Assembly: GCA_964594215.1 (NCBI GenBank)
Contig: CAZQLN010000003.1
Coordinates: forward strand, 25,447 to 89,446
DNA: 64,000 nucleotides
Direction: 5' to 3'
Origin: an uncultured Bdellovibrionales bacterium
GTDB taxonomy: Bacteria; Patescibacteriota; Minisyncoccia; Moranbacterales; UBA1568
Under the pieces are notes generated by a model. It was given only the letters and a program-made list of their open reading frames with translations, was not told the DNA's origin and ran no database searches. Each line of letters opens with the position of its first letter. Positions within the stretch are counted from its first letter, which is position 1. The translations under genes were made by a program, and so were the position numbers. Below are positions 23,260 through 57,901 of the stretch, piece after piece.

Positions 23260-24624
23260 ATGCCAAATACAAAAAGTAAGTCAGTTAATTTTTTTACCGC
23301 TCTATTGATAACCCTTTTCTCATTTTCTGGGTTCGCTTTTGCCTATACGGTAAGTACAGGTACCCCTTTTATGGCCATGATCTCACAGGCTCATAATGGT
23401 GAAGATGACAATGAAGATAGTAATGATAGTGGGGACGACAACGAGGATGATAACGAAGACGATAATGAGGATGAGAATGATGATCAGGATAAGGTAGAAA
23501 AAGAAGCTGAAAAGAAAGCTAAAGAAGAAGCTAAGCACAAGGCTGAGTTCCAGCGTGAGCAACTCAAGAAAAAGTCAGAATGGTTACGCAAACAGGTAGA
23601 GAGTCGTCGTGAAGCTGAAAACAAAATCGATGATGACGAAGATGAGAATGAAAATGAGGACGAGCAAGAACATGAGCAAGATGACAAAAAAGCAGATCTC
23701 CTCAAAGATATCAACGAAGACATTATTGATGCCGAAGAACGCATAGCGCGAGCTCAGGCTGAAGGTATTGATGTAACCAAGGCGATGGCTACTTTAGCTG
23801 TTGCCAAGGAGAAGGCTAGTGCCGCTGAGCAAGCTCTTGCTGACACTTCGTATGAGGCATTGCGGAGTATCGCCCGTGAAGTCAAAAAACTAGCTCATTT
23901 CGCTAGTCACAAGGATGTCAAAAGCTCCCGCGATATGGAGAAGGATGTGAGTAAGATAGCCAAACGTATTGCTCAAACCAAAGGCAAGATCAGTCTGTAT
24001 GAGAGTCTGGGAGGCGATGCTGGAGCACTGAGTGCCTCATTGGCTACATTGGAGTCAGAATTCAATGCTCTCAAAGAAAATCTAGCCAAGGGTGGTCAAG
24101 ACCAGATTAATGCCCTTGGAGCTCTCGATCCTCTCGAGCGCAAGGTTAAGCGTCTTAAGAGTAGTGTCGAGGCAGCTATTTATGCCCTCGGTGGCACTGA
24201 TGAGCGCTATGATGATGATTATGAAAATGAAGTAGAAGATATCTACGAAGGACTCAATGATGTTGCGGAAATTGAAGGGGATGACTTAGGTGAACAGATT
24301 CGCTCTATTGCTACTGCTCAGAAGAGCTCGGTAGATAAGGTTAGTGGTCCAGTAGAGGCTATCGATAAGCGTAGTCAGGTACTGCAGTTCCTCCTTGGTA
24401 CGAAGAAGAGTGAAATTGAGAAATTGGAAACGGAAATTACTGCTAACAAGGCTCGTATCGAAGTTTTGACTCAGGCAGCTGATAAAATAGATGATCCAGA
24501 AGTCCGTGCTATTCTCTTGGCTCAGGTGACTGATCTAGAGATGGAGACAACTAAGCTCGAGACCTTTGTCTCTGGCCAAAAAGACCGTCTCAGCGCCTTT
24601 GGCTGGTTCTTCAACCTTTTCTAG
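23260..24624 (+). CDS. signal-anchored, highly acidic D/E/N-repeat coiled-coil protein (hypothetical)
   Basis: N-terminal hydrophobic segment, then DDNEDDNEDDNEDENDDQD-type repeats and long heptad-like charged helices. Confidence 0.55.
   Translation: MPNTKSKSVNFFTALLITLFSFSGFAFAYTVSTGTPFMAMISQAHNGEDDNEDSNDSGDDNEDDNEDDNEDENDDQDKVEKEAEKKAKEEAKHKAEFQREQLKKKSEWLRKQVESRREAENKIDDDEDENENEDEQEHEQDDKKADLLKDINEDIIDAEERIARAQAEGIDVTKAMATLAVAKEKASAAEQALADTSYEALRSIAREVKKLAHFASHKDVKSSRDMEKDVSKIAKRIAQTKGKISLYESLGGDAGALSASLATLESEFNALKENLAKGGQDQINALGALDPLERKVKRLKSSVEAAIYALGGTDERYDDDYENEVEDIYEGLNDVAEIEGDDLGEQIRSIATAQKSSVDKVSGPVEAIDKRSQVLQFLLGTKKSEIEKLETEITANKARIEVLTQAADKIDDPEVRAILLAQVTDLEMETTKLETFVSGQKDRLSAFGWFFNLF
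23400..23480 (+). repeat. low-complexity GAT/GAA/AAT codon repeats encoding the poly-D/E/N tract
   Basis: Direct reading of gatgacaatgaagat…gataatgaggatgagaatgatgat. Confidence 0.6.
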
Positions 24625-24783
24625 GAGAGAAAGAGGCTAAATTAGTTTACCTCTCCTCGTTCGGAAACAAAAAATAATTTTTGTTTCGCTCACTTCAGAC
24701 GGTAATAAGACCAAAAAAAGGGCTCCTAGAGAGCTCTTTTTGGGTATATGGTATAGTTTCATAATAAGAGATATCCAAAAGGC

Positions 24784-25359
24784 ATGGAAATAGAATACGA
24801 AGCTACTTTTCCTAATGTTGATAAAGACGTTGTCCGCAAGAAGCTCCAAGAAGTTGGAGCGAGTCTTTTGCGTCCTGAATATACTCAGCGACGAAGGGTC
24901 TACCACTTACCAGTAGGTCATGAAATTAACGGTGGTTGGATGAGAGTGAGAGATGAGGGAGATAAGATCATGATTACCCTCAAGATTGTTGATGGTGAGA
25001 AAATAGAAAATCAAAAAGAGATCAATCTGGGAGTTAATGACTTTGAGACAGCTTGCGAGTTGGTAAAAAATCTAGGTTGTCGAGAAAAAGCCTACCAGGT
25101 AACGAAACGTGAACTTTGGCAGCTCAATGGTGTAGAAGTAACCATTGATGAGTGGCCGTTTCTTGAACCGTTTGTTGAAGTTGAGGGCAAATCAGAAGCT
25201 GACGTAAAAGCTGTTGCGGAGAAATTGGGATTTAACTATTCGGAAGCATTATTTTGTGCTGTAGGCACACTATATGCCAAGAAATATAGTGTTAGCGAAG
25301 ATGTCATAAATAACGAAACTCCCGTTCTTGATTTTGAGGGTGAAAATCCATTTCTGTAA
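24784..25359 (+). CDS. CYTH-domain protein (class IV adenylyl cyclase / triphosphate-tunnel metalloenzyme family)
   Basis: N-terminal EIEYE (ExExK-like) motif and about 190 aa, typical of CYTH. Confidence 0.6.
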   Translation: MEIEYEATFPNVDKDVVRKKLQEVGASLLRPEYTQRRRVYHLPVGHEINGGWMRVRDEGDKIMITLKIVDGEKIENQKEINLGVNDFETACELVKNLGCREKAYQVTKRELWQLNGVEVTIDEWPFLEPFVEVEGKSEADVKAVAEKLGFNYSEALFCAVGTLYAKKYSVSEDVINNETPVLDFEGENPFL

Positions 25360-25365
25360 GAGTTT

Positions 25366-26250
25366 ATGAATATTGCTGGTAAAGAGTATAAGCATGTTAA
25401 AGATCGTTCATATGGTCTCGGTTCTATCTATACTGATGGAGGGAGTTTTCTGCGTATTGGCGAGGAGAAATTGATCAAAGAAGAGCTAGCTTTTCATAAG
25501 AAGATCCAAAGATATGGTTTTCCAGTTGCAGATATATTAGCAGAAGGGGAAAATCAGCCGGGTCAGTATTACTATATTGAGACATCATTTGGCGATCAGC
25601 TTCTCGCAGATGTTTTTGCTGAAGAATATAAAGAACAAGGGTATGTTTCTGAAGAAAATTTCAACAAAATGTTGGCTGTAGTGTCGGACTTTGCAAGGGC
25701 ACAATATCAAACAGCCAGTACCGAGAGCAGTTTTGATGAGTTTTACCGAGGCATTAAGTGTGGCGACTTGTTAAAAGAAAAACCAGAGTTAGCTGAAAAG
25801 GCGGATGAGGTTTTTGAAAAGATAGAAGAGCGACTCAGGGTTTTTCCGAGAGTCCTTACTCATGGTGACCTGAATCCACATAATGTGTTTCCAAAAGGGG
25901 TTATCGATTTCGCAAATTCATACGAAGCGCCTTTTGGCTTTGATATTGTGAGCAATCTTTTCACCACATATTTTTTTCCTGAATCACCAACCTTTGAGTT
26001 TCAGAGAAGGTCTCAGTTCTCAGAAGAACAAAGACAGAGATATATGAGTTATTTCGACAAACTTTTTAAAGAATGGAATCTTCCCAAGTTGAGTGAGTAT
26101 CTTTCCGAATTTATCATAGCTCGTGGCGTTTGGGCTTGTGTGTGGATGGCAGAGTGGCCAAAAATTCAGACTTGGCGATATGGTAAGATTGAGAAAATGA
26201 TGGATGCATATCTTCGTGATGAGGATGTGACAAAAATCTTAATAGAGTAA
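25366..26250 (+). CDS. phosphotransferase-family small-molecule kinase (APH/choline-kinase/ThiK-like)
   Basis: Catalytic loop VLTHGDLNPHNVF (HGDxxxxN) and downstream D…FD. Confidence 0.65.
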   Translation: MNIAGKEYKHVKDRSYGLGSIYTDGGSFLRIGEEKLIKEELAFHKKIQRYGFPVADILAEGENQPGQYYYIETSFGDQLLADVFAEEYKEQGYVSEENFNKMLAVVSDFARAQYQTASTESSFDEFYRGIKCGDLLKEKPELAEKADEVFEKIEERLRVFPRVLTHGDLNPHNVFPKGVIDFANSYEAPFGFDIVSNLFTTYFFPESPTFEFQRRSQFSEEQRQRYMSYFDKLFKEWNLPKLSEYLSEFIIARGVWACVWMAEWPKIQTWRYGKIEKMMDAYLRDEDVTKILIE

Positions 26251-26265
26251 AGGATATAGTTTTCT

Positions 26266-26796
26266 ATGGAAATCAAGAAATGGCCAGTAGTGAGTAGGGA
26301 ATCTATTTTCAAAAAATATGGGAGAGAAGTAGAACGAGTTGATTTTGAGTTACCCGATGGCAGTGTGGCTGATTTTTATCTTAAAAAAGAGGAAGATACC
26401 GTTTGCATACTGGCTCTTACTAAGAATAATGAGGTCATCCTGGCTAAACAGTTTCGTCCTGGGCCATACGAAGTACTCCTTGAGCTTCCTGGTGGGGGTA
26501 TCGAAGAGGGGGAATCGCCAGAAGTCGCGGGAGCAAGAGAGCTACTAGAAGAGACTGGTTACGCCGGCAAGGCAGAGTTTGTCGTCCAGGCCTTGGATTG
26601 TGGCTACTCTACCAGAAGGAGAAACTGCGTTGCGATTACTGATTGTGAGAAAGTAGCTGAGATTCAGAATACAGCCACAGAAAAGACAGAGGTAGTCCTT
26701 ATGTCACTGTCAGAGTTCCGTGAGCACCTTCGCTCTGGCCAGCTAACAGATATTGAGATAGGTTATCTGGGACTTGATTATCTCGGACTCTTGTAA
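26266..26796 (+). CDS. NUDIX hydrolase
   Basis: Nudix box GGGIEEGESPEVAGARELLEETGY. Confidence 0.8.
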   Translation: MEIKKWPVVSRESIFKKYGREVERVDFELPDGSVADFYLKKEEDTVCILALTKNNEVILAKQFRPGPYEVLLELPGGGIEEGESPEVAGARELLEETGYAGKAEFVVQALDCGYSTRRRNCVAITDCEKVAEIQNTATEKTEVVLMSLSEFREHLRSGQLTDIEIGYLGLDYLGLL

Positions 26797-26798
26797 GT

Positions 26799-27563
26799 AT
26801 GAACAAGTCTATTGAAGTAAAAGAGCTAGACAAGGAGCTTGTGGTGCGTTTTAGTGATAAGACGATAGTGCTACCCCAAGAAGTTCGGGAGAAGATTGAT
26901 GTCTATTGGCAGAGTCTCCTTGATAGTGGGAAGAACTACCGCAGGGGAGAGGTGTTTACCGTTACTAGGGTTACGGAAACGGATGCAACTATAGAAGTGT
27001 TGGTAGAGAAGAGCGACTACGCACACTACCTGTACTGCCAGAATGTCGATACGCTTGGTGAGTATGGCGTGAGAATTATCCACACAGCTTGCCTCGTCAT
27101 TACGAGCGATAATAAAACAGTATTGGGTGAAATGGGATCTCAGACAGCTCGTGCTGGTATGTACCAGCTTTGCGGTGGAGGTATTGAGCTTAGGTATCTA
27201 TATGGTGAGGTTTTTGATTTAGATAAGAATATTAAAGAAGAATTACAAGAAGAACTTGGTATTGATGTGCAGGATAGTACGCGAGTCAAATCTTTTACCG
27301 AAAAATATCTGAAGTCCGGTGGTCCAACAGGTAAAATGACAGTCATTTACGAGTTGTTACTCAATGAGTCTCTGGAAGAATTTTTAGAACACTATGCAGA
27401 TTTTGAGGAAAAGCTTATAGAGAAAGGAGAAAACCCTGAGTTTGGAAGACTTGTAACGTTGCCACTTGATAATAAGGAATTCATAAAGAAATTCTTTGAG
27501 CAAAATGAGAAAAAGTGTGACGAGTACTTGAAGCCTTTATTTGAAGCTCTAAATTTACTCTGA
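26799..27563 (+). CDS. hypothetical protein with degenerate Nudix-like box
   Basis: GGGIELRYLYGEVFDLDKNIKEELQEELGI resembles a degraded Nudix motif; 2-nt gap to the upstream gene. Confidence 0.45.
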   Translation: MNKSIEVKELDKELVVRFSDKTIVLPQEVREKIDVYWQSLLDSGKNYRRGEVFTVTRVTETDATIEVLVEKSDYAHYLYCQNVDTLGEYGVRIIHTACLVITSDNKTVLGEMGSQTARAGMYQLCGGGIELRYLYGEVFDLDKNIKEELQEELGIDVQDSTRVKSFTEKYLKSGGPTGKMTVIYELLLNESLEEFLEHYADFEEKLIEKGENPEFGRLVTLPLDNKEFIKKFFEQNEKKCDEYLKPLFEALNLL

Positions 27564-27623
27564 TTTATATTTAAGATGAGAATTAAAGTTAGCACTACAA
27601 ATTAGTGAGAGTATGAGGTAACT

Positions 27624-27652
27624 TTGACAGAGATTGAGATGTGTGTTATATA
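27624..27652 (+). promoter_or_regulatory. near-consensus sigma70 promoter TTGACA-N17-TATATA in a 338-nt ORF-track-free region
   Basis: Exact -35 hexamer and 17-nt spacer read directly; would drive the 46-codon ORF / putative sRNA. Confidence 0.45.
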
Positions 27653-27680
27653 TTAATAATCTAAATTTTGGTGTAAAGAT

Positions 27681-27821
27681 ATGAATTTACAGGTCCAGCA
27701 AATGAATACAATTAAGTCACCGATCACAAACAATGATCGTGGTTTTGCCTATCTTGAAGGCAAGGCAATTGTATTAAGCTGGAGTTATCAAAATATCTTA
27801 CCAAAAACCTCTTAAAGCGTA
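27681..27821 (+). CDS. possible 46-aa small protein (MNLQVQQMNTIKSPITNNDRGFAYLEGKAIVLSWSYQNILPKTS) or non-coding RNA body
   Basis: Only ORF between promoter and terminator; weak SD; below the ORF-track length cutoff. Confidence 0.25.
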
Positions 27822-27842
27822 GTAACTCTCTCCATTTAGATG

Positions 27843-27875
27843 GCCCCAGCTCAATATAAAAGCTGGGGCTTTTTT
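27843..27875 (+). terminator. intrinsic terminator
   Basis: Perfect 9-bp stem gccccagct/agctggggc, 9-nt loop, then TTTTTT. Confidence 0.7.
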
Positions 27876-53858: not shown

Positions 53859-54725
53859 ATGAAGTATACCTTCTCAACCGCTCTTGTGGCGGTGTCGCTC
53901 GCTTTTGCTTCCCAGGCCTCGGCCAAGGAAGTGAAGCCGGCAGAGATGGAGGTTCGCGGCCTTCACGCCGTCGAAGCTCCCTGGCAACCAGAGAGTCTGT
54001 CGCTTGACACGCGTCAAGTGCAGGCACTCCAGGTAATTACTATCCCACTTTCGGAGGCAACAAAGAAAGAATGGGCAAAAGTTAACCGTGATAAACGTGG
54101 TATTCGAATGATCGTCGATGGAGAAGATGGCAAGCCTCGGCTTGTTGGACGACCCGTCATCAAGGCGACGTTTCGCGTATTGCTTATGAAGGATGGTGAC
54201 ATTCTTCCTATGAGCGAAGCCGAAATGATTACCACTGGCGGTGAGGCCATCAATATCCTCTTGCCGCCTGACGTTGATTTCCGTGGAACGACAGCCTTTG
54301 TGTTGGCGGATCGCGGACGTCATGCACTTACTCTTGCGGGTGAGATTATCGATCTCGACAAGGGAAAGAAACGACTTATTACGTCCAAGTTGCCCGATCA
54401 AGTTGCCACTTCGGTGGTGGAAGACACGGCTTTGAGTGTACGGGGTGAGCCTTCTGGGTTGTACCTCGATATGCTGGAAGCCACATTTAGCGAACACGCT
54501 GTTCTCAACAACAGTCTTCGCTATTCCGGTCTTCCCGGCACTTTTCTTTCCAAGGATATGACCCGTTACCCTTCGGTGGCGGCTCTCTATACGAGGGAAG
54601 ACACAGTCGGCGATCGCTTGATTACCTGCGGCAATGGAACACTGGATCCGTCCATGTTCACTGGTATTGGAGCCCTTGTTAAAGTGGGCTCCAACCTCAT
54701 CGTCGCACTCAAGAAACGTTGCTAG
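53859..54725 (+). CDS. secreted hypothetical protein, GC-rich (about 52-55%)
   Basis: Signal peptide MKYTFSTALVAVSLAFASQASA; GGAG 8 nt upstream; composition unlike its flanks. Confidence 0.6.
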   Translation: MKYTFSTALVAVSLAFASQASAKEVKPAEMEVRGLHAVEAPWQPESLSLDTRQVQALQVITIPLSEATKKEWAKVNRDKRGIRMIVDGEDGKPRLVGRPVIKATFRVLLMKDGDILPMSEAEMITTGGEAINILLPPDVDFRGTTAFVLADRGRHALTLAGEIIDLDKGKKRLITSKLPDQVATSVVEDTALSVRGEPSGLYLDMLEATFSEHAVLNNSLRYSGLPGTFLSKDMTRYPSVAALYTREDTVGDRLITCGNGTLDPSMFTGIGALVKVGSNLIVALKKRC

Positions 54726-54828
54726 GAGAAATTCGATGACCTGGCAGCACGGCAACCCTATCGATCAATTCTGGTCGAGACGGTTGCTCTGTGCGCCGTC
54801 TCGACTTCCATCAAGGAGTGTAAGTATC

Positions 54829-56187
54829 ATGAAACGTTTTCTCCTGACCCTTGGGGTCGCCCTCTCGGTGTCGATGACTGGATTCATTTCCAGTTCGGCA
54901 TCGGCGGCGACCACTCGAAATGCCGAAGGGTATGTCGAGTGGAGCCGGGTGGGCGCCGCTACCATGAACTTGTTTCAGGGTGGTGGTCCACGCCTTGATC
55001 TGGCACGCGTTTATGCGATGCGCCAGATGGGTGTGAGCGAACCTGAAATTGCTCAAGTCCTCCTGGACTTTCATGCAAAAAACTTCGAGGAAGGCGTTAT
55101 CCGCAAGGGTGACAAGTTCAAGACGATGTCTTTTGCTAACAAGAAAGAGGTCAAGGTGATGCATAACGTCATCTTGACTGCAGACGGCGAATACAGGGTT
55201 TGGCGGATGCGCACCAAAAGCGGACTGACTATCACGTTCGTTGAGAAGTGTGCCAATGTCGGCATCGAGGAAACTCCGCCGGCACCGCCTGCCAAAGAAA
55301 ACCCTCCGCCGGTAGAGGAAACTCCGCCGGCACCTCCGCCTCCCTTTGTTCCGCCGACGACGGTCGAAGAAGGCCAGCGTCTCTGCAATAAGCTTCGGGT
55401 CAACGGTGTTCTCGGTTTCGAATGGGAACCGCTCATCCATGGCTCGGACTCGCGTAGCTTGTATGCTGCTGCGGGTATCTATTGCATGCGTCTGACCAAG
55501 TACGGTCAAATCGGTTTCGGTCTCGGTGGCCAAGCTGCCTTCTACGGTGGCAAGGTCAAACATGTTGGTCGTTTCCAGGGCCATCTCTATGGCGCAGGAC
55601 CGGCAGTCATGATCGTGAACGACAAAGGTCTCGACTACGAAGGCAAGTTGATGATCATGGACTACACATCAAGCTACCGCCAAGGTGGCTACCGTTCCCA
55701 TGAGCATCGCACGGTGATTGGGATGAGCCTGGCTCATAACGACTACCGTGGCCGGATTGACGGCACTGGCAAGCCAGAAACGCAGTACTTCGCCTTGTGC
55801 GGAGTGCCGATTGGTGGTCATACCACGGAAACGTGGAATGGTCAGAAAATCGGCAACGGCTCGAAGCTCGGGCTTGTCTGCAACGCTGGCCTTCGGAAGT
55901 ATCTGACGGAGGGCAAGAAGTGGAATCCGTATATTCAAGGCGGACTCCTGGGTGAAGCTCGCAAGGGTGGAGCCGACTTCTTGTCTGGCAGTCTGCGTCT
56001 TGGTGCTTCGAATAAGCATCGGACGATCGGTTGTGGAGCGGGTATCGACGTGAACCTGCTTAAGGGCGGTATCCATCCTGGCCTCGGCTGTTGGGTGGAT
56101 GTTGCTGGCATGGTACGCCACAAGCGTACGGCCTCACGGGCGGCAGCTATTGCAGCTGACCAGCTTCCGGCAACCAAGAACGAATAA
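54829..56187 (+). CDS. secreted hypothetical protein with proline-rich linker (EETPPAPPAKENPPPVEETPPAPPPPFVPP), GC-rich
   Basis: AAGGAG then ATG 54829; signal peptide MKRFLLTLGVALSVSMTGFISSSASA. The track ORF from 54634 is an upstream extension. Confidence 0.6.
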   Translation: MKRFLLTLGVALSVSMTGFISSSASAATTRNAEGYVEWSRVGAATMNLFQGGGPRLDLARVYAMRQMGVSEPEIAQVLLDFHAKNFEEGVIRKGDKFKTMSFANKKEVKVMHNVILTADGEYRVWRMRTKSGLTITFVEKCANVGIEETPPAPPAKENPPPVEETPPAPPPPFVPPTTVEEGQRLCNKLRVNGVLGFEWEPLIHGSDSRSLYAAAGIYCMRLTKYGQIGFGLGGQAAFYGGKVKHVGRFQGHLYGAGPAVMIVNDKGLDYEGKLMIMDYTSSYRQGGYRSHEHRTVIGMSLAHNDYRGRIDGTGKPETQYFALCGVPIGGHTTETWNGQKIGNGSKLGLVCNAGLRKYLTEGKKWNPYIQGGLLGEARKGGADFLSGSLRLGASNKHRTIGCGAGIDVNLLKGGIHPGLGCWVDVAGMVRHKRTASRAAAIAADQLPATKNE

Positions 56188-56416
56188 CCGGGACTAACGT
56201 CCCAAAGTGATGAACCTCACACTGTTGGCAAATAGCTCCGCAAGGACTATAACGAAAAACGGTTAGCATAGGGACAAGACCCTATGTCAAGGTATAGCGG
56301 ACGCTATACTGGAGCAGACTTTCAGGCAACTGAGAGCGAAGCGACCCGGCCACGAGGTAAAAGGATTGTTGGTGTGTACAGCCAATGAAACTTCATTGCG
56401 ATAAACATTTTCCTCA

Positions 56417-56449
56417 AGGTCAGCCTCTGCTCACGCATGCTGACCTTTT
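56417..56449 (+). terminator. putative intrinsic terminator
   Basis: 8-bp stem aggtcagc/gctgacct (14-nt loop) then TTTT. Confidence 0.45.
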
Positions 56450-56452
56450 CAT

Positions 56453-56481
56453 TTGACTTTTTATCATTTTAGGTGTATAAT
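56453..56481 (+). promoter_or_regulatory. sigma70-type promoter TTGACT-N17-TATAAT
   Basis: Direct reading; 33 nt before ATG 56515. Confidence 0.5.
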
Positions 56482-56514
56482 ATATTTTAGTTTAAAATGA
56501 TTTTTTAGGATTCT

Positions 56515-57267
56515 ATGCCACAAATAAAGCGGATAATATACTTCACAGCCATTTTGGTCTTGGCTGTGGTCGCTTATACTAAGACTTTTGGTGACCTTAT
56601 AGCAAAACCTTTTGAACAGGAGGTTTGTTGGCAGTTACCAGTTTTTGGAGAACAAGGAGTACCTCATGGTGCTCTTTGGAAACAGGAAACCGTGAGAGAA
56701 GAACATGCACCCGAGGGATATCATGCAGCTGTAGCTTGGATGAATGTGGTAACTACGTGGCCATGTACAGAGGTCTCTGGACCAGCATTAGCAGAAGTAC
56801 GGGCAATACGAATTATAGAAAAAAAAGCTGATGAAGAAAGAGTGGTTTTAAATCAGGTTTTTGATACAGAGAAACGGACTGGTTTTAGTGGGGCTCTTTT
56901 TCAGCGACAACCTTTTTGGTTTGGTCCAGGTGAGGGAAAACTCAGTGGCGGGGTAGCTAGTTTCACTAAGAATGGTCTCGTTATTAATGCGCGGCAAATT
57001 CCTCACAATATCTACCATGGTTGGTCTGATCCACGTATTCATATTGATAATGATGCGCAGTACATTGTAGAGGCGGAAGTTCGGGTAACAGGCACGGCAC
57101 GTTTACAATTAGGCATGGACTATTGGCGGGATCTTGAGAGTGATTACAGTGGCTATGACCCTAATTGTCAGACAAGTAATAACTGCGAAGCCTGGATAGG
57201 GGATTGGCAAGGTGATACAAATGGTCAATTTATCACTCTACGTTCACCGAAGCAATTTCTTCAGTAA
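56515..57267 (+). CDS. membrane-anchored hypothetical extracytoplasmic protein (low-GC)
   Basis: N-terminal TM IIYFTAILVLAVVAY; 250 aa; no motif recognised. Confidence 0.55.
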   Translation: MPQIKRIIYFTAILVLAVVAYTKTFGDLIAKPFEQEVCWQLPVFGEQGVPHGALWKQETVREEHAPEGYHAAVAWMNVVTTWPCTEVSGPALAEVRAIRIIEKKADEERVVLNQVFDTEKRTGFSGALFQRQPFWFGPGEGKLSGGVASFTKNGLVINARQIPHNIYHGWSDPRIHIDNDAQYIVEAEVRVTGTARLQLGMDYWRDLESDYSGYDPNCQTSNNCEAWIGDWQGDTNGQFITLRSPKQFLQ

Positions 57268-57274
57268 CTGATAA

Positions 57275-57300
57275 ATAGCCCGAAATAGGGCTATTTTTGT
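57275..57300 (+). terminator. intrinsic terminator
   Basis: 7-bp stem atagccc/gggctat, 6-nt loop, then TTTTTGTTTTTG. Confidence 0.7.
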
Positions 57301-57325
57301 TTTTGATAAAGGCATTATTGGACTA

Positions 57326-57354
57326 TTGACAAAAATGCCTTAGGGGTGTATAAT
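57326..57354 (+). promoter_or_regulatory. consensus sigma70 promoter TTGACA-N17-TATAAT
   Basis: Exact consensus in both hexamers; about 120-nt leader to ATG 57479. Confidence 0.55.
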
Positions 57355-57478
57355 GGCTCTTCAAGGTGCTATTCGAGTATCTTGGAGGGTTCCACCTGGG
57401 ACTCAGCAAACCTGGGTTTCCAGGAGTATGATAAGGTTGTTCGACACCTTTCTCCAAAGTCGAACATGGAGAAATACC

Positions 57479-57901
57479 ATGAAGAAGATGTACCTTTCAA
57501 TTGTTGCTATCGCGGCCTCGCTTGCCATAACGCCTGCATTCGCTGAACCGACGACGGTCAGCGTCGATTCACCTCTCGGTGTTTCGGCCGTTTCTGATGC
57601 ATCGGTCATCGCCATGCCGGCTATTCCCGGTGGCAATGTCGACTATGCCAGGAACCCTGATTTTTTCGCAAACGCCTCGCTGTGCGTTTCGAATCCTGAC
57701 GGTAACTGGGCGATTAGGCGCGATGGGACGCTCGACACCTTCAATCCTGAACGTCGGGCAGCGTGCGCACCGATCGTCAATGGTCAGGCTGCCGTATCTG
57801 GCAACTTCGTCCGTGGCGCCACGCCGTTCATTATGCGCGACGGCCGCATTCTGGCCTGGGCTGGTCGTGATCGGCTCAAGGGGTTGCCGCCTATCCGGTA
57901 A
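57479..57901 (+). CDS. small secreted hypothetical protein, GC-rich (about 58%)
   Basis: GGAG then ATG 57479; signal peptide MKKMYLSIVAIAASLAITPAFA. The track ORF from 57353 begins inside the -10 hexamer. Confidence 0.55.
   Translation: MKKMYLSIVAIAASLAITPAFAEPTTVSVDSPLGVSAVSDASVIAMPAIPGGNVDYARNPDFFANASLCVSNPDGNWAIRRDGTLDTFNPERRAACAPIVNGQAAVSGNFVRGATPFIMRDGRILAWAGRDRLKGLPPIR

Follow-up and report, generated by a model that had tools for sequence, protein, structure and literature searches.

When four genes for phosphate-handling enzymes stand almost end to end in a compact bacterial genome, do they encode the steps of one pathway, or do they share a transcript while their products act independently? 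The question arises from a cluster on the forward strand of a 64,000-nucleotide stretch of DNA (here called the window; positions 25,447 to 89,446 of contig CAZQLN010000003.1, assembly GCA_964594215.1) from a member of the Patescibacteria, or candidate phyla radiation (CPR), a lineage dependent on salvage. Genes 1 to 4, at 24,784 to 27,563 of the window, encode in order a CYTH protein, an APH-family kinase, a canonical Nudix hydrolase and a second, Nudix-like protein. An original prediction, made from the letters of the DNA and their translations, proposed that these genes constitute a module for interconverting or sanitizing either a phosphorylated cofactor, with thiamine phosphates as the concrete candidate, or a nucleotide second messenger. 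We arrive at a looser reading, held with somewhat better than even confidence, in which the four genes are transcribed together but were assembled ad hoc in evolution, their enzymes acting independently in the clean-up and salvage of nucleotides, nucleoside diphosphate (NDP) sugars and other phosphoanhydrides. The gene structure, the domain and fold assignments and the conservation of motifs are clear, and a conserved gene order is lacking.

A probable single transcription unit

The four genes lie on one strand at 24,784–25,359 (gene 1, 191 residues), 25,366–26,250 (gene 2, 294 residues), 26,266–26,796 (gene 3, 176 residues) and 26,799–27,563 (gene 4, 254 residues), with gaps of 6, 15 and 2 nt, just as had been described. 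Upstream, a hairpin followed by a T-run (24,710–24,745, forward strand; folding energy, dG, −16.7 kcal/mol) lies 3′ of a gene for a 454-residue protein and marks the 5′ boundary of the unit; downstream, an intrinsic terminator with a 10-bp G+C-rich stem and then T6 (27,842–27,875, forward strand; dG −20.8 kcal/mol) begins ~280 nt 3′ of the gene 4 stop codon and forms the 3′ boundary before a gene for an MFS transporter. Stability was judged as a z-score of the RNA folding energy against shuffled controls (−3.5 and −3.7, respectively). Because the gaps are tight and the bounding hairpins fold better than the shuffled controls, genes 1 to 4 very probably form one transcription unit. Compact spacing is general across the window, however, and is hence indecisive for or against a pathway. 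The G+C content of the individual genes (0.39–0.46, vs 0.432 for the window) gives no clear sign of their recent transfer.

A gene order confined to one species

Conservation of the gene neighborhood, which had been put forward as a check on the module, is one point on which that proposal fails. The four-gene cluster is present in five further contigs, and since the kinase is 100% identical to that of the window in every contig carrying the cluster, all of them appear to represent one species. The CYTH-kinase-Nudix-Nudix order is absent from separate genomes, as sampled in 10 independent contexts of kinase-family members, 83 loci with CYTH relatives and 80 loci with gene 4 relatives. The neighbors in the ten kinase contexts differ from one to another, tblastn detected no gene 2 homolog in any of the 80 gene 4 or 83 CYTH loci, and the commonest neighbor family accounts for at most 9 of the former and 7 of the latter. 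A scan of genome contigs with the kinase alone gave no match.

The nearest relatives of the locus tell the same story in finer grain. One of them (L013), with a GT4 glycosyltransferase 93% identical to that of the window, has the gene for the upstream 454-residue protein followed by a NUDIX gene (69.5% identity), an S-adenosylmethionine-dependent methyltransferase gene and a gene 4 homolog (72%), with kinase and CYTH absent. In a second (L093), the same upstream gene precedes a CYTH gene (86%), an ATP-binding cassette (ABC) transporter gene, a NUDIX gene (90%) and an RmlD-like gene, and in a third (L095) it precedes a PDDEXK gene, a CYTH gene (72%), a sulfotransferase gene and others. Because these relatives have other genes in its slot, the kinase appears to be a lineage-specific insertion in a variable slot. 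An order found in one species therefore points to a loose grouping rather than to a dedicated thiamine or signaling pathway.

Phosphohydrolases of this kind do tend to sit close together, without a fixed partner. Of the Pfam families encoded by the 125 immediate neighbors of CYTH homologs, NUDIX leads with 9 members, MazG-like and HIT proteins are also found, and APH is not within the top 25 families listed. Open reading frames (ORFs) with a Nudix box stand next to CYTH genes in 7 of 125 cases, compared with 6 of 342 more distant positions (p about 0.05), and next to gene 4 relatives in 8 of 138 compared with 7 of 697 (p about 0.001), p-values that are optimistic because the loci are not phylogenetically independent.

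Two Nudix proteins, one canonical and one NUDT22-like

Pfam profile searches of the kind originally suggested placed CYTH, APH and, for gene 3, NUDIX above their cutoffs. Gene 3 scores 52.3 bits against PF00293 (E = 7.6e-14, cutoff 21.1), and its translation contains the canonical Nudix box GX5EX7REUXEEXGU in the form GGGIEEGESPEVAGARELLEETGY. Its nearest solved relatives are ADP-ribose pyrophosphatases of Bacillus (~2e-13), Ndx4 of T. thermophilus and human NUDT5. The best NCBIfam model, NudE, gives 43 bits vs a cutoff of 169, and all equivalog models fall far below their cutoffs. In its canonical box and N-terminal extension, gene 3 resembles ADP-ribose/ADP-sugar pyrophosphatases such as the B. 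subtilis-type NudF, Ndx4, NUDT5 and E. coli NudE, and it is best described as a hydrolase of that type. Aligned with the Bacillus enzyme, it has a Cys at the position of the downstream Pro that is regarded as an ADP-ribose pyrophosphatase signature.

Gene 4 was described at the outset as having a degenerate Nudix box, an account borne out by its sub-threshold match to NUDIX (14.3 bits, E = 0.041, cutoff 21.1). Neither Pfam nor NCBIfam has a model that covers the bacterial family to which it belongs, which occurs in Patescibacteria, Firmicutes and Rhizobiales and numbers at least 159 homolog clusters. Across 32 sequences the catalytic glutamates E148, E151 and E152 are invariant and the Arg position is variable, and an insertion of 5 residues separates the Gly of the box from its RE-equivalent. 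The AlphaFold2 (AF2) model has a pLDDT of 95.4, and in Foldseek human NUDT22 (5lf9, 5lor) stands at the top (E = 2.9e-11 to 5.6e-10, query-based template modeling score, TMq, 0.61–0.70, over 263–289 columns), the next best fold reaching only E = 2.5e-6 and TM 0.35. The two-domain fold of NUDT22, in which an N-terminal domain is packed on the Nudix domain, is matched over the full length. NUDT22 yields UMP and glucose-1-phosphate from UDP-glucose; phylogenetically it stands apart from the other human Nudix proteins, and it has no Nudix box of the conventional kind. Gene 4 and NUDT22 thus share a β-rich N-terminal domain, a Nudix domain (TM 0.6–0.7) and a non-conventional box, but gene 4 is ~40 residues shorter and 12–14% identical, and because the family's sequence profile does not recover NUDT22, the link stands at the level of fold only. 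Judged by its modeled fold, gene 4 is most likely an NUDT22-like protein and a predicted hydrolase of UDP- or other NDP-sugars.

The genomic context of gene 4 homologs lends indirect support to a nucleotide-sugar substrate. Six loci in Patescibacteria have a gene row encoding an NTP_transferase (sugar-1-phosphate nucleotidylyltransferase), a 4,6-dehydratase-like protein, an SDR protein, an APH kinase and, last, a gene 4 homolog. In the recurrent Moranbacteria version of this operon (L014, 2608–6765; also L015, L018 and L026), the dehydratase is FnlA/PseB-like, the kinase is weakly HSK2/CotS-like, and the stop of the kinase gene overlaps the start of the gene 4 homolog by 4 nt. The operon looks like an uncharacterized NDP-sugar pathway that includes an NUDT22-like enzyme, and the nucleotide-sugar setting of gene 4 homologs in several bacterial operons parallels the UDP-glucose/UDP-galactose diphosphatase activity of NUDT22. 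The kinase found beside gene 4 homologs in these other Moranbacteria (APH_c13) was considered as a relative of gene 2 and rejected, as it has only the catalytic loop in common. In Clostridia, gene 4 homologs occur in the arrangements Ham1-NUDIX-gene 4 or QueA-gene 4-TGT; the clostridial Nudix partner shares only Nudix-box similarity with gene 3 and was not accepted as its ortholog. A plasmid collection searched with a rhizobial gene 4 homolog yielded weak matches only (25–29% identity), annotated as 'NUDIX domain-containing protein', and a literature search found no mention of a bacterial NUDT22 family.

An orphan kinase family

Gene 2 encodes an APH-fold (eukaryotic-like) small-molecule kinase, with 41.3 bits against APH PF01636 (E = 2e-10, cutoff 23.2). 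The catalytic loop HGDLNPHN that had been read from the translation occupies residues 166–173 (HGDLNxxN as a family motif) and is followed by an IDF metal-binding motif. D168, N173 and D181 do not vary within the family, H166 is kept in at least 90% of its members, and with an HxDxxxxN loop, a downstream metal-binding Asp and the bilobal kinase fold the protein belongs to the APH/eukaryotic-like kinase superfamily. An unusual trait is the β3 strand, (F/Y)LRIG: where protein-kinase-like enzymes normally have the ATP-binding Lys, an Arg (R30) stands in no fewer than 90% of the 114 family members. An exhaustive HMMER search, counted as clusters at 50% identity, gave 403 members with a threshold of E ≤ 1e-3 and 192 with one of E ≤ 1e-30, whereas a word-index homolog search had understated the family at 9 clusters. 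Gene 2 has no NCBIfam match at E ≤ 0.1, and its relatives form a small, sharply bounded orphan family.

The suggestion that the kinase is of the ThiK type did not survive. As a control, E. coli ThiK matches the NCBIfam thiamine-kinase models (NF007620/TIGR02721) at 4.8e-167 and 554.5 bits, models that gene 2 does not match, and hhalign of gene 2 with ThiK returns a probability of 0.4% over 32 columns of the catalytic loop only; assignment as a thiamine kinase was rejected on these grounds.

Other comparisons give hints of its substrate. Among solved structures, methylthioribose kinase (MtnK) is matched by the gene 2 profile at 1.1e-3 when the profile is built from 9 sequences and at 1.4e-4 when it is built from 114; with the deeper profile, the best match overall is the uncharacterized 3CSV (3.3e-5), of which a literature search found no mention, and MtnK is the best among functionally characterized proteins. 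MtnK (2olc, 2pyw), 3CSV and gene 2 have in common an HGDL...N loop followed by (V/I)ID(P/F)E..F..P.G(F/Y)D. Two fusions add to this. P0289 carries the kinase domain behind that of an MTAP-like nucleoside phosphorylase (TIGR01694 at E = 1e-59, short of the equivalog cutoff), an arrangement with the same pathway logic as that of MtnK, and in P0308 the domain in front is a P-loop kinase of the AAA_33 type. In one locus (L180) the gene for the AAA_33-kinase fusion has its start overlapped by a Nudix gene, a gene for an NT5C nucleotidase lies downstream of a kinase-family gene in two others (L181, L183), and Ham1, HIT, AAA_18 and HAD genes lie near a family member in a fourth (L006). The Nudix partner in L180, tried as an ortholog of gene 3, has only Nudix-box similarity to it and was rejected. 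The fusions, the neighbors and the profile match to methylthioribose kinase together point, weakly but consistently, to a nucleoside-derived sugar as the substrate of gene 2. A more specific idea, to which we give only a slim chance, is that the family acts as a ribose-1-phosphate (or 5-substituted ribose) kinase directly after an MTAP-like phosphorylase.

As side observations on P0289, which comes from a 28-kb contig (JGI 3300050046), the catalytic loop of its kinase domain reads QGD in place of HGD, and its gene is overlapped downstream by an M20 peptidase gene and preceded upstream by conjugation-type genes (TrwB/TraG, relaxase).

Independent salvage enzymes or sequential pathway?

If the cluster consists of independent clean-up enzymes, the products of the four genes would act as follows in a unit that sits in a variable slot beside genes for cell-envelope glycosyltransferases. 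Gene 1 would be an Mg-dependent tunnel triphosphatase that takes the terminal phosphate off a triphosphate substrate, gene 3 would convert ADP-ribose or ADP-sugar type compounds to AMP and a sugar phosphate, and gene 4 would convert UDP- or other NDP-hexoses to a nucleoside monophosphate (NMP) and hexose-1-phosphate. Gene 2 would use ATP to phosphorylate what is probably a nucleoside-derived sugar, be it ribose, a ribose phosphate or a 5-substituted ribose. Overall, NMPs and sugar phosphates would be recovered, and unwanted triphosphates would be disposed of. From the original prediction, nucleotide-related metabolism or sanitation survives as a general theme, seen in the fusions and neighbors of the kinase and the modest Nudix enrichment; the dedicated, conserved module does not.

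Several points weigh against even this loose reading. The substrates of all four proteins and the physiological role of the unit are predictions. The enrichment of Nudix genes next to CYTH and gene 4 relatives is modest and comes from loci lacking phylogenetic independence, each kinase fusion is known from one representative, and the fold neighbors of the kinase are spread evenly over many APH subfamilies. The gene 4 profile finds no NUDT22 among PDB sequences at E ≤ 1, and the two proteins are 12–14% identical. Finally, the spacing of 2–15 nt and the single terminator signify joint expression, which is as much to be expected of a true pathway.

Such a pathway is the foremost alternative. The cluster would then be young but functionally sequential, with the Nudix enzymes splitting NDP-sugars or nucleosides, the kinase phosphorylating the sugar or sugar phosphate released, and the CYTH enzyme removing a triphosphate by-product or regulating the pool. 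Expression of the four genes from one transcription unit next to GT4-Wzz-GT4 genes is in its favor, as is the existence of the MTAP-kinase fusion. So, too, are the independent recurrence of kinase-Nudix adjacency in L180 and the six NDP-sugar operon loci, where a non-orthologous APH kinase gene overlaps the start of the gene 4 homolog. Yet the Nudix partners of the kinase are non-orthologous between loci, the nearest relatives of the window have an ABC transporter in the kinase slot or genes 3 and 4 without kinase and CYTH, and no gene 2 homolog occurs in the 163 CYTH or gene 4 loci. We consider a sequential pathway unlikely, albeit worth keeping in view.

A further alternative concerns only the kinase, which could be an antibiotic-resistance phosphotransferase of the aminoglycoside or macrolide type, carried as cargo between housekeeping genes. 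The top Foldseek matches of gene 2 are indeed APH(3′), APH(4) and APH(2″), and the slot is a variable one that in L093 holds an ABC transporter gene. We rate this explanation as improbable.

A predicted tunnel triphosphatase with an aromatic gate

Gene 1 belongs to the CYTH superfamily, with a PF01928 match above the gathering score (50.2 bits, E = 3.5e-13, cutoff 23.2) and the acidic and basic residues of the tunnel in place, so that E4, E6, R37, R54, K67, K78, E79, R109, E110, E132 and E134 are all invariant in its family. The match to the cyaB model TIGR00318, at 54.1 bits, remains under the cutoff of 57.95. More than 2260 homolog clusters were found in Patescibacteria, many of them 60–70% identical to the window protein, and this size and conservation suggest a housekeeping role. 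When the family profile was compared with all PDB sequences at E ≤ 10, the best match was the archaeal triphosphate tunnel metalloenzyme (TTM) SaTTM (7ns8, 1.5e-6), followed by its relatives 1yem and 2dc4 (to 1.5e-4), and two class IV adenylyl cyclase (AC-IV) structures appeared at E about 1.

Motifs bring out both the likeness to SaTTM and the peculiarity of the clade. The hallmark ExExK is lost in the gene 1 family, where 195 of 198 sequences have E-[YF]-E-A-T; both Glu residues are kept and the Lys is replaced, T8 of gene 1 aligning with the Lys of 'EIEVK' in 2dc4. Of the 198 sequences, 186 have an ExE motif on β8 (E132-x-E134) and 190 have WxRxR (W52-x-R54-x-R56), in which W52 and R54 are invariant and R56 is kept in at least 90%. 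The SaTTM residue opposite W52 in the alignment is A54, a position taken in mouse thiamine triphosphatase (ThTPase) by W53, the Trp stacked on the thiazolium ring (Vogt et al. 2021, PMC8233210). SaTTM (Saci_0718) and the archaeal CyaB-like TTMs (7ns8, 1yem, 2dc4) are thus like gene 1 in being single-domain proteins of ~190 residues with the CYTH fold, the tunnel acidic and basic residues, ExE on β8 and an RxR pair. The gene 1 clade is unlike SaTTM in having Trp for Ala54 and Thr for the Lys of ExExK, in its low identity, and in being bacterial rather than archaeal.

True AC-IV cyclases require HFxxxxExExK, cyclases have ExA in place of the phosphatase-type ExE on β8, and in xRxR their first Arg has given way to a small residue (Vogt et al. 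2021, PMC8233210). In gene 1, HFxxxxExExK is impossible because E4 is the fourth residue (M-E-I-E4) and leaves no room for HF. With no HF, an intact ExE and R54, and SaTTM as its best profile match, gene 1 is concluded to be a phosphohydrolase (ExExT, WxRxR and ExE motifs) and not a cyclase. In addition, the invariant gate Trp hints at a preference for an organic triphosphate with an aromatic ring, either a nucleoside triphosphate (NTP) or thiamine triphosphate (ThTP), rather than bare tripolyphosphate (PPPi).

How far, then, does the aromatic gate carry the thiamine hypothesis? As a module, thiamine kinase, ThTPase and pyrophosphatases would interconvert thiamine and its mono-, di- and triphosphates (ThMP, ThDP and ThTP). 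The W/YxRxR motif has been described as defining thiamine triphosphatases, being found otherwise only in the pyrophosphate-preferring plant TTM1/2 (PMC8233210), and by the criteria of Vogt et al. (2021) the mammalian 25-kDa THTPA shares with gene 1 both W-x-R-x-R at the equivalent position and ExE on β8. According to a review, microorganisms have no known specific ThTPase, and a candidate specific microbial ThTPase in the gene 1 clade is a reasonable but unproven proposal. For gene 1 alone, therefore, WxRxR keeps the thiamine idea alive. Against it stand the ExExT for ExExK, the occurrence of the W/Y motif in plant TTM1/2, the lack of detectable profile similarity to THTPA and the lack of any visible linkage to thiamine genes. 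The search of solved structures at E ≤ 10 found no ThTPase, although that of mouse (5A64) has been solved. The Tyr of the THTPA dyad Tyr39-Lys65 is not obviously conserved in the gene 1 family, where Phe is mostly found nearby in a tentative part of the alignment. The module as a whole fares worse, with a kinase that is not ThiK-like, Nudix genes that resemble ADP-sugar and UDP-sugar enzymes, and a CYTH gene unlinked to any kinase in 83 loci; we regard it, too, as improbable. That the patescibacterial CYTH clade with the WxRxR gate represents the first specific prokaryotic thiamine-triphosphatase-like enzyme, alongside the gene 2 family as a novel type of APH-fold kinase for the ribose set free in nucleoside salvage, would be a bold conclusion, and we give it only a slim chance.

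Slimmer still are the chances of a second-messenger module, in which gene 1 would be an AC-IV and the Nudix enzymes or the kinase would turn the signal over. The TIGR00318 score comes near its cutoff, and the label 'adenylate cyclase class 2' is attached to family members in some sources. Yet SaTTM, which carries a similar cyclase-type annotation, cleaves the terminal phosphate from PPPi and NTPs and forms no cyclic nucleotide. Moreover, gene 1 cannot form HFxxxxExExK, has ExE rather than ExA and keeps the central Arg, and the AC-IV structures lie at E about 1 vs 1.5e-6 for SaTTM. AC-IV was accordingly rejected as an identity for gene 1, whose lack of cyclase signatures makes synthesis of the proposed nucleotide messenger unlikely. 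Least credible of all is an anti-phage defense or counter-defense cassette acting by nucleotide depletion or signal degradation, given that the domains of Nudix and CYTH-like type known from some defense contexts and a weak PADLOC match of both Nudix proteins to PDC-S07 must be set against the generic Nudix nature of that match (32.8 and 17.1 bits), the lack of a PADLOC match for CYTH and kinase, the near-universal, 60–70% conserved CYTH clade in Patescibacteria, typical of housekeeping genes, and the absence of effector, sensor or mobile-element genes nearby.

Two CYTH loci outside the cluster deserve mention. In a Moranbacteria genome (CP064989; L097, 4598–5579) and in L098, which represent one lineage only, an inorganic pyrophosphatase gene lies 44 nt 5′ of the CYTH gene, a pair that would fit sequential hydrolysis of PPPi to pyrophosphate (PPi) and then phosphate (Pi). 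In a Paenibacillaceae metagenome-assembled genome (MAG; L036, 9536–12,702, minus strand), a row of phosphohydrolase genes, HD-HisPhos-HAD-CYTH-YmdB-like, includes one for a CYTH protein with 35% identity to gene 1, and the opposite strand carries a gene 4 homolog at a distance of 3.5 kb.

Surroundings of the cluster

The names borne by homologs (Moranbacteria, Parcubacteria, Patescibacteria) assign the window to the CPR, and its genome is Moranbacteria-like. Gene order in the window runs PheT-GT4-Wzz-GT4-upstream 454-residue gene-[CYTH-APH-NUDIX-gene 4]-MFS and on to a histidine kinase. The upstream 454-residue protein (23,260–24,624) matches no Pfam family; it has an N-terminal hydrophobic segment followed by a very acidic (D/E/N-rich), coiled-coil-like sequence. 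Its position after GT4-Wzz-GT4 is kept in three related genomes (47–82% identity), unlike the genes 3′ of it. Three related MAG records (L013, L025 and L026) are titled 'uncultured Bdellovibrionales', and their genes are 54–93% identical to those of the Patescibacteria-like window, with common synteny; the labels are probably wrong.

The spacer between gene 4 and the end of the terminator (27,564–27,875) contains a TTGACA-type promoter-like element at ~27,625, upstream of a 44-residue ORF (27,681–27,815, forward strand) of uncertain reality that is called as a gene in an identical contig (L001) and possibly belongs to a separate small transcript. Two adjoining hairpins lie at 27,718–27,766, and the spacer may represent such a transcript or a regulatory leader. 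Rfam, at the gathering threshold across the whole window, returned a single tRNA distant from the locus. Farther downstream, 53,859–57,901 looks like a compositionally foreign island, with a G+C content of ~0.54 (0.48 in the next 2 kb) vs 0.43 for the window, no rRNA by Rfam, and ORFs with signal-peptide-like N-termini, together with one for a proline-rich 517-residue protein.

Implications

The four-gene operon itself is not a new system, and it serves as a caution that tight spacing in compact CPR genomes is not to be taken as evidence of a pathway. The value of the finding resides instead in three uncharacterized enzyme subfamilies without a curated model, which this locus unites in organisms that depend on nucleotide and cofactor salvage. 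A near-universal patescibacterial CYTH clade pairs a ThTPase-type aromatic gate with an altered hallmark motif. A bacterial family with the 'unique' NUDT22 fold would extend UDP-sugar-based pyrimidine salvage to bacteria. And one lineage has a nucleoside phosphorylase joined in a single protein to a kinase of the orphan, sharply bounded family; if that family does act as a ribose-1-phosphate kinase, it would supply the kinase step of a route from nucleosides to ribose-1,5-bisphosphate that is only weakly evidenced in CPR genomes.

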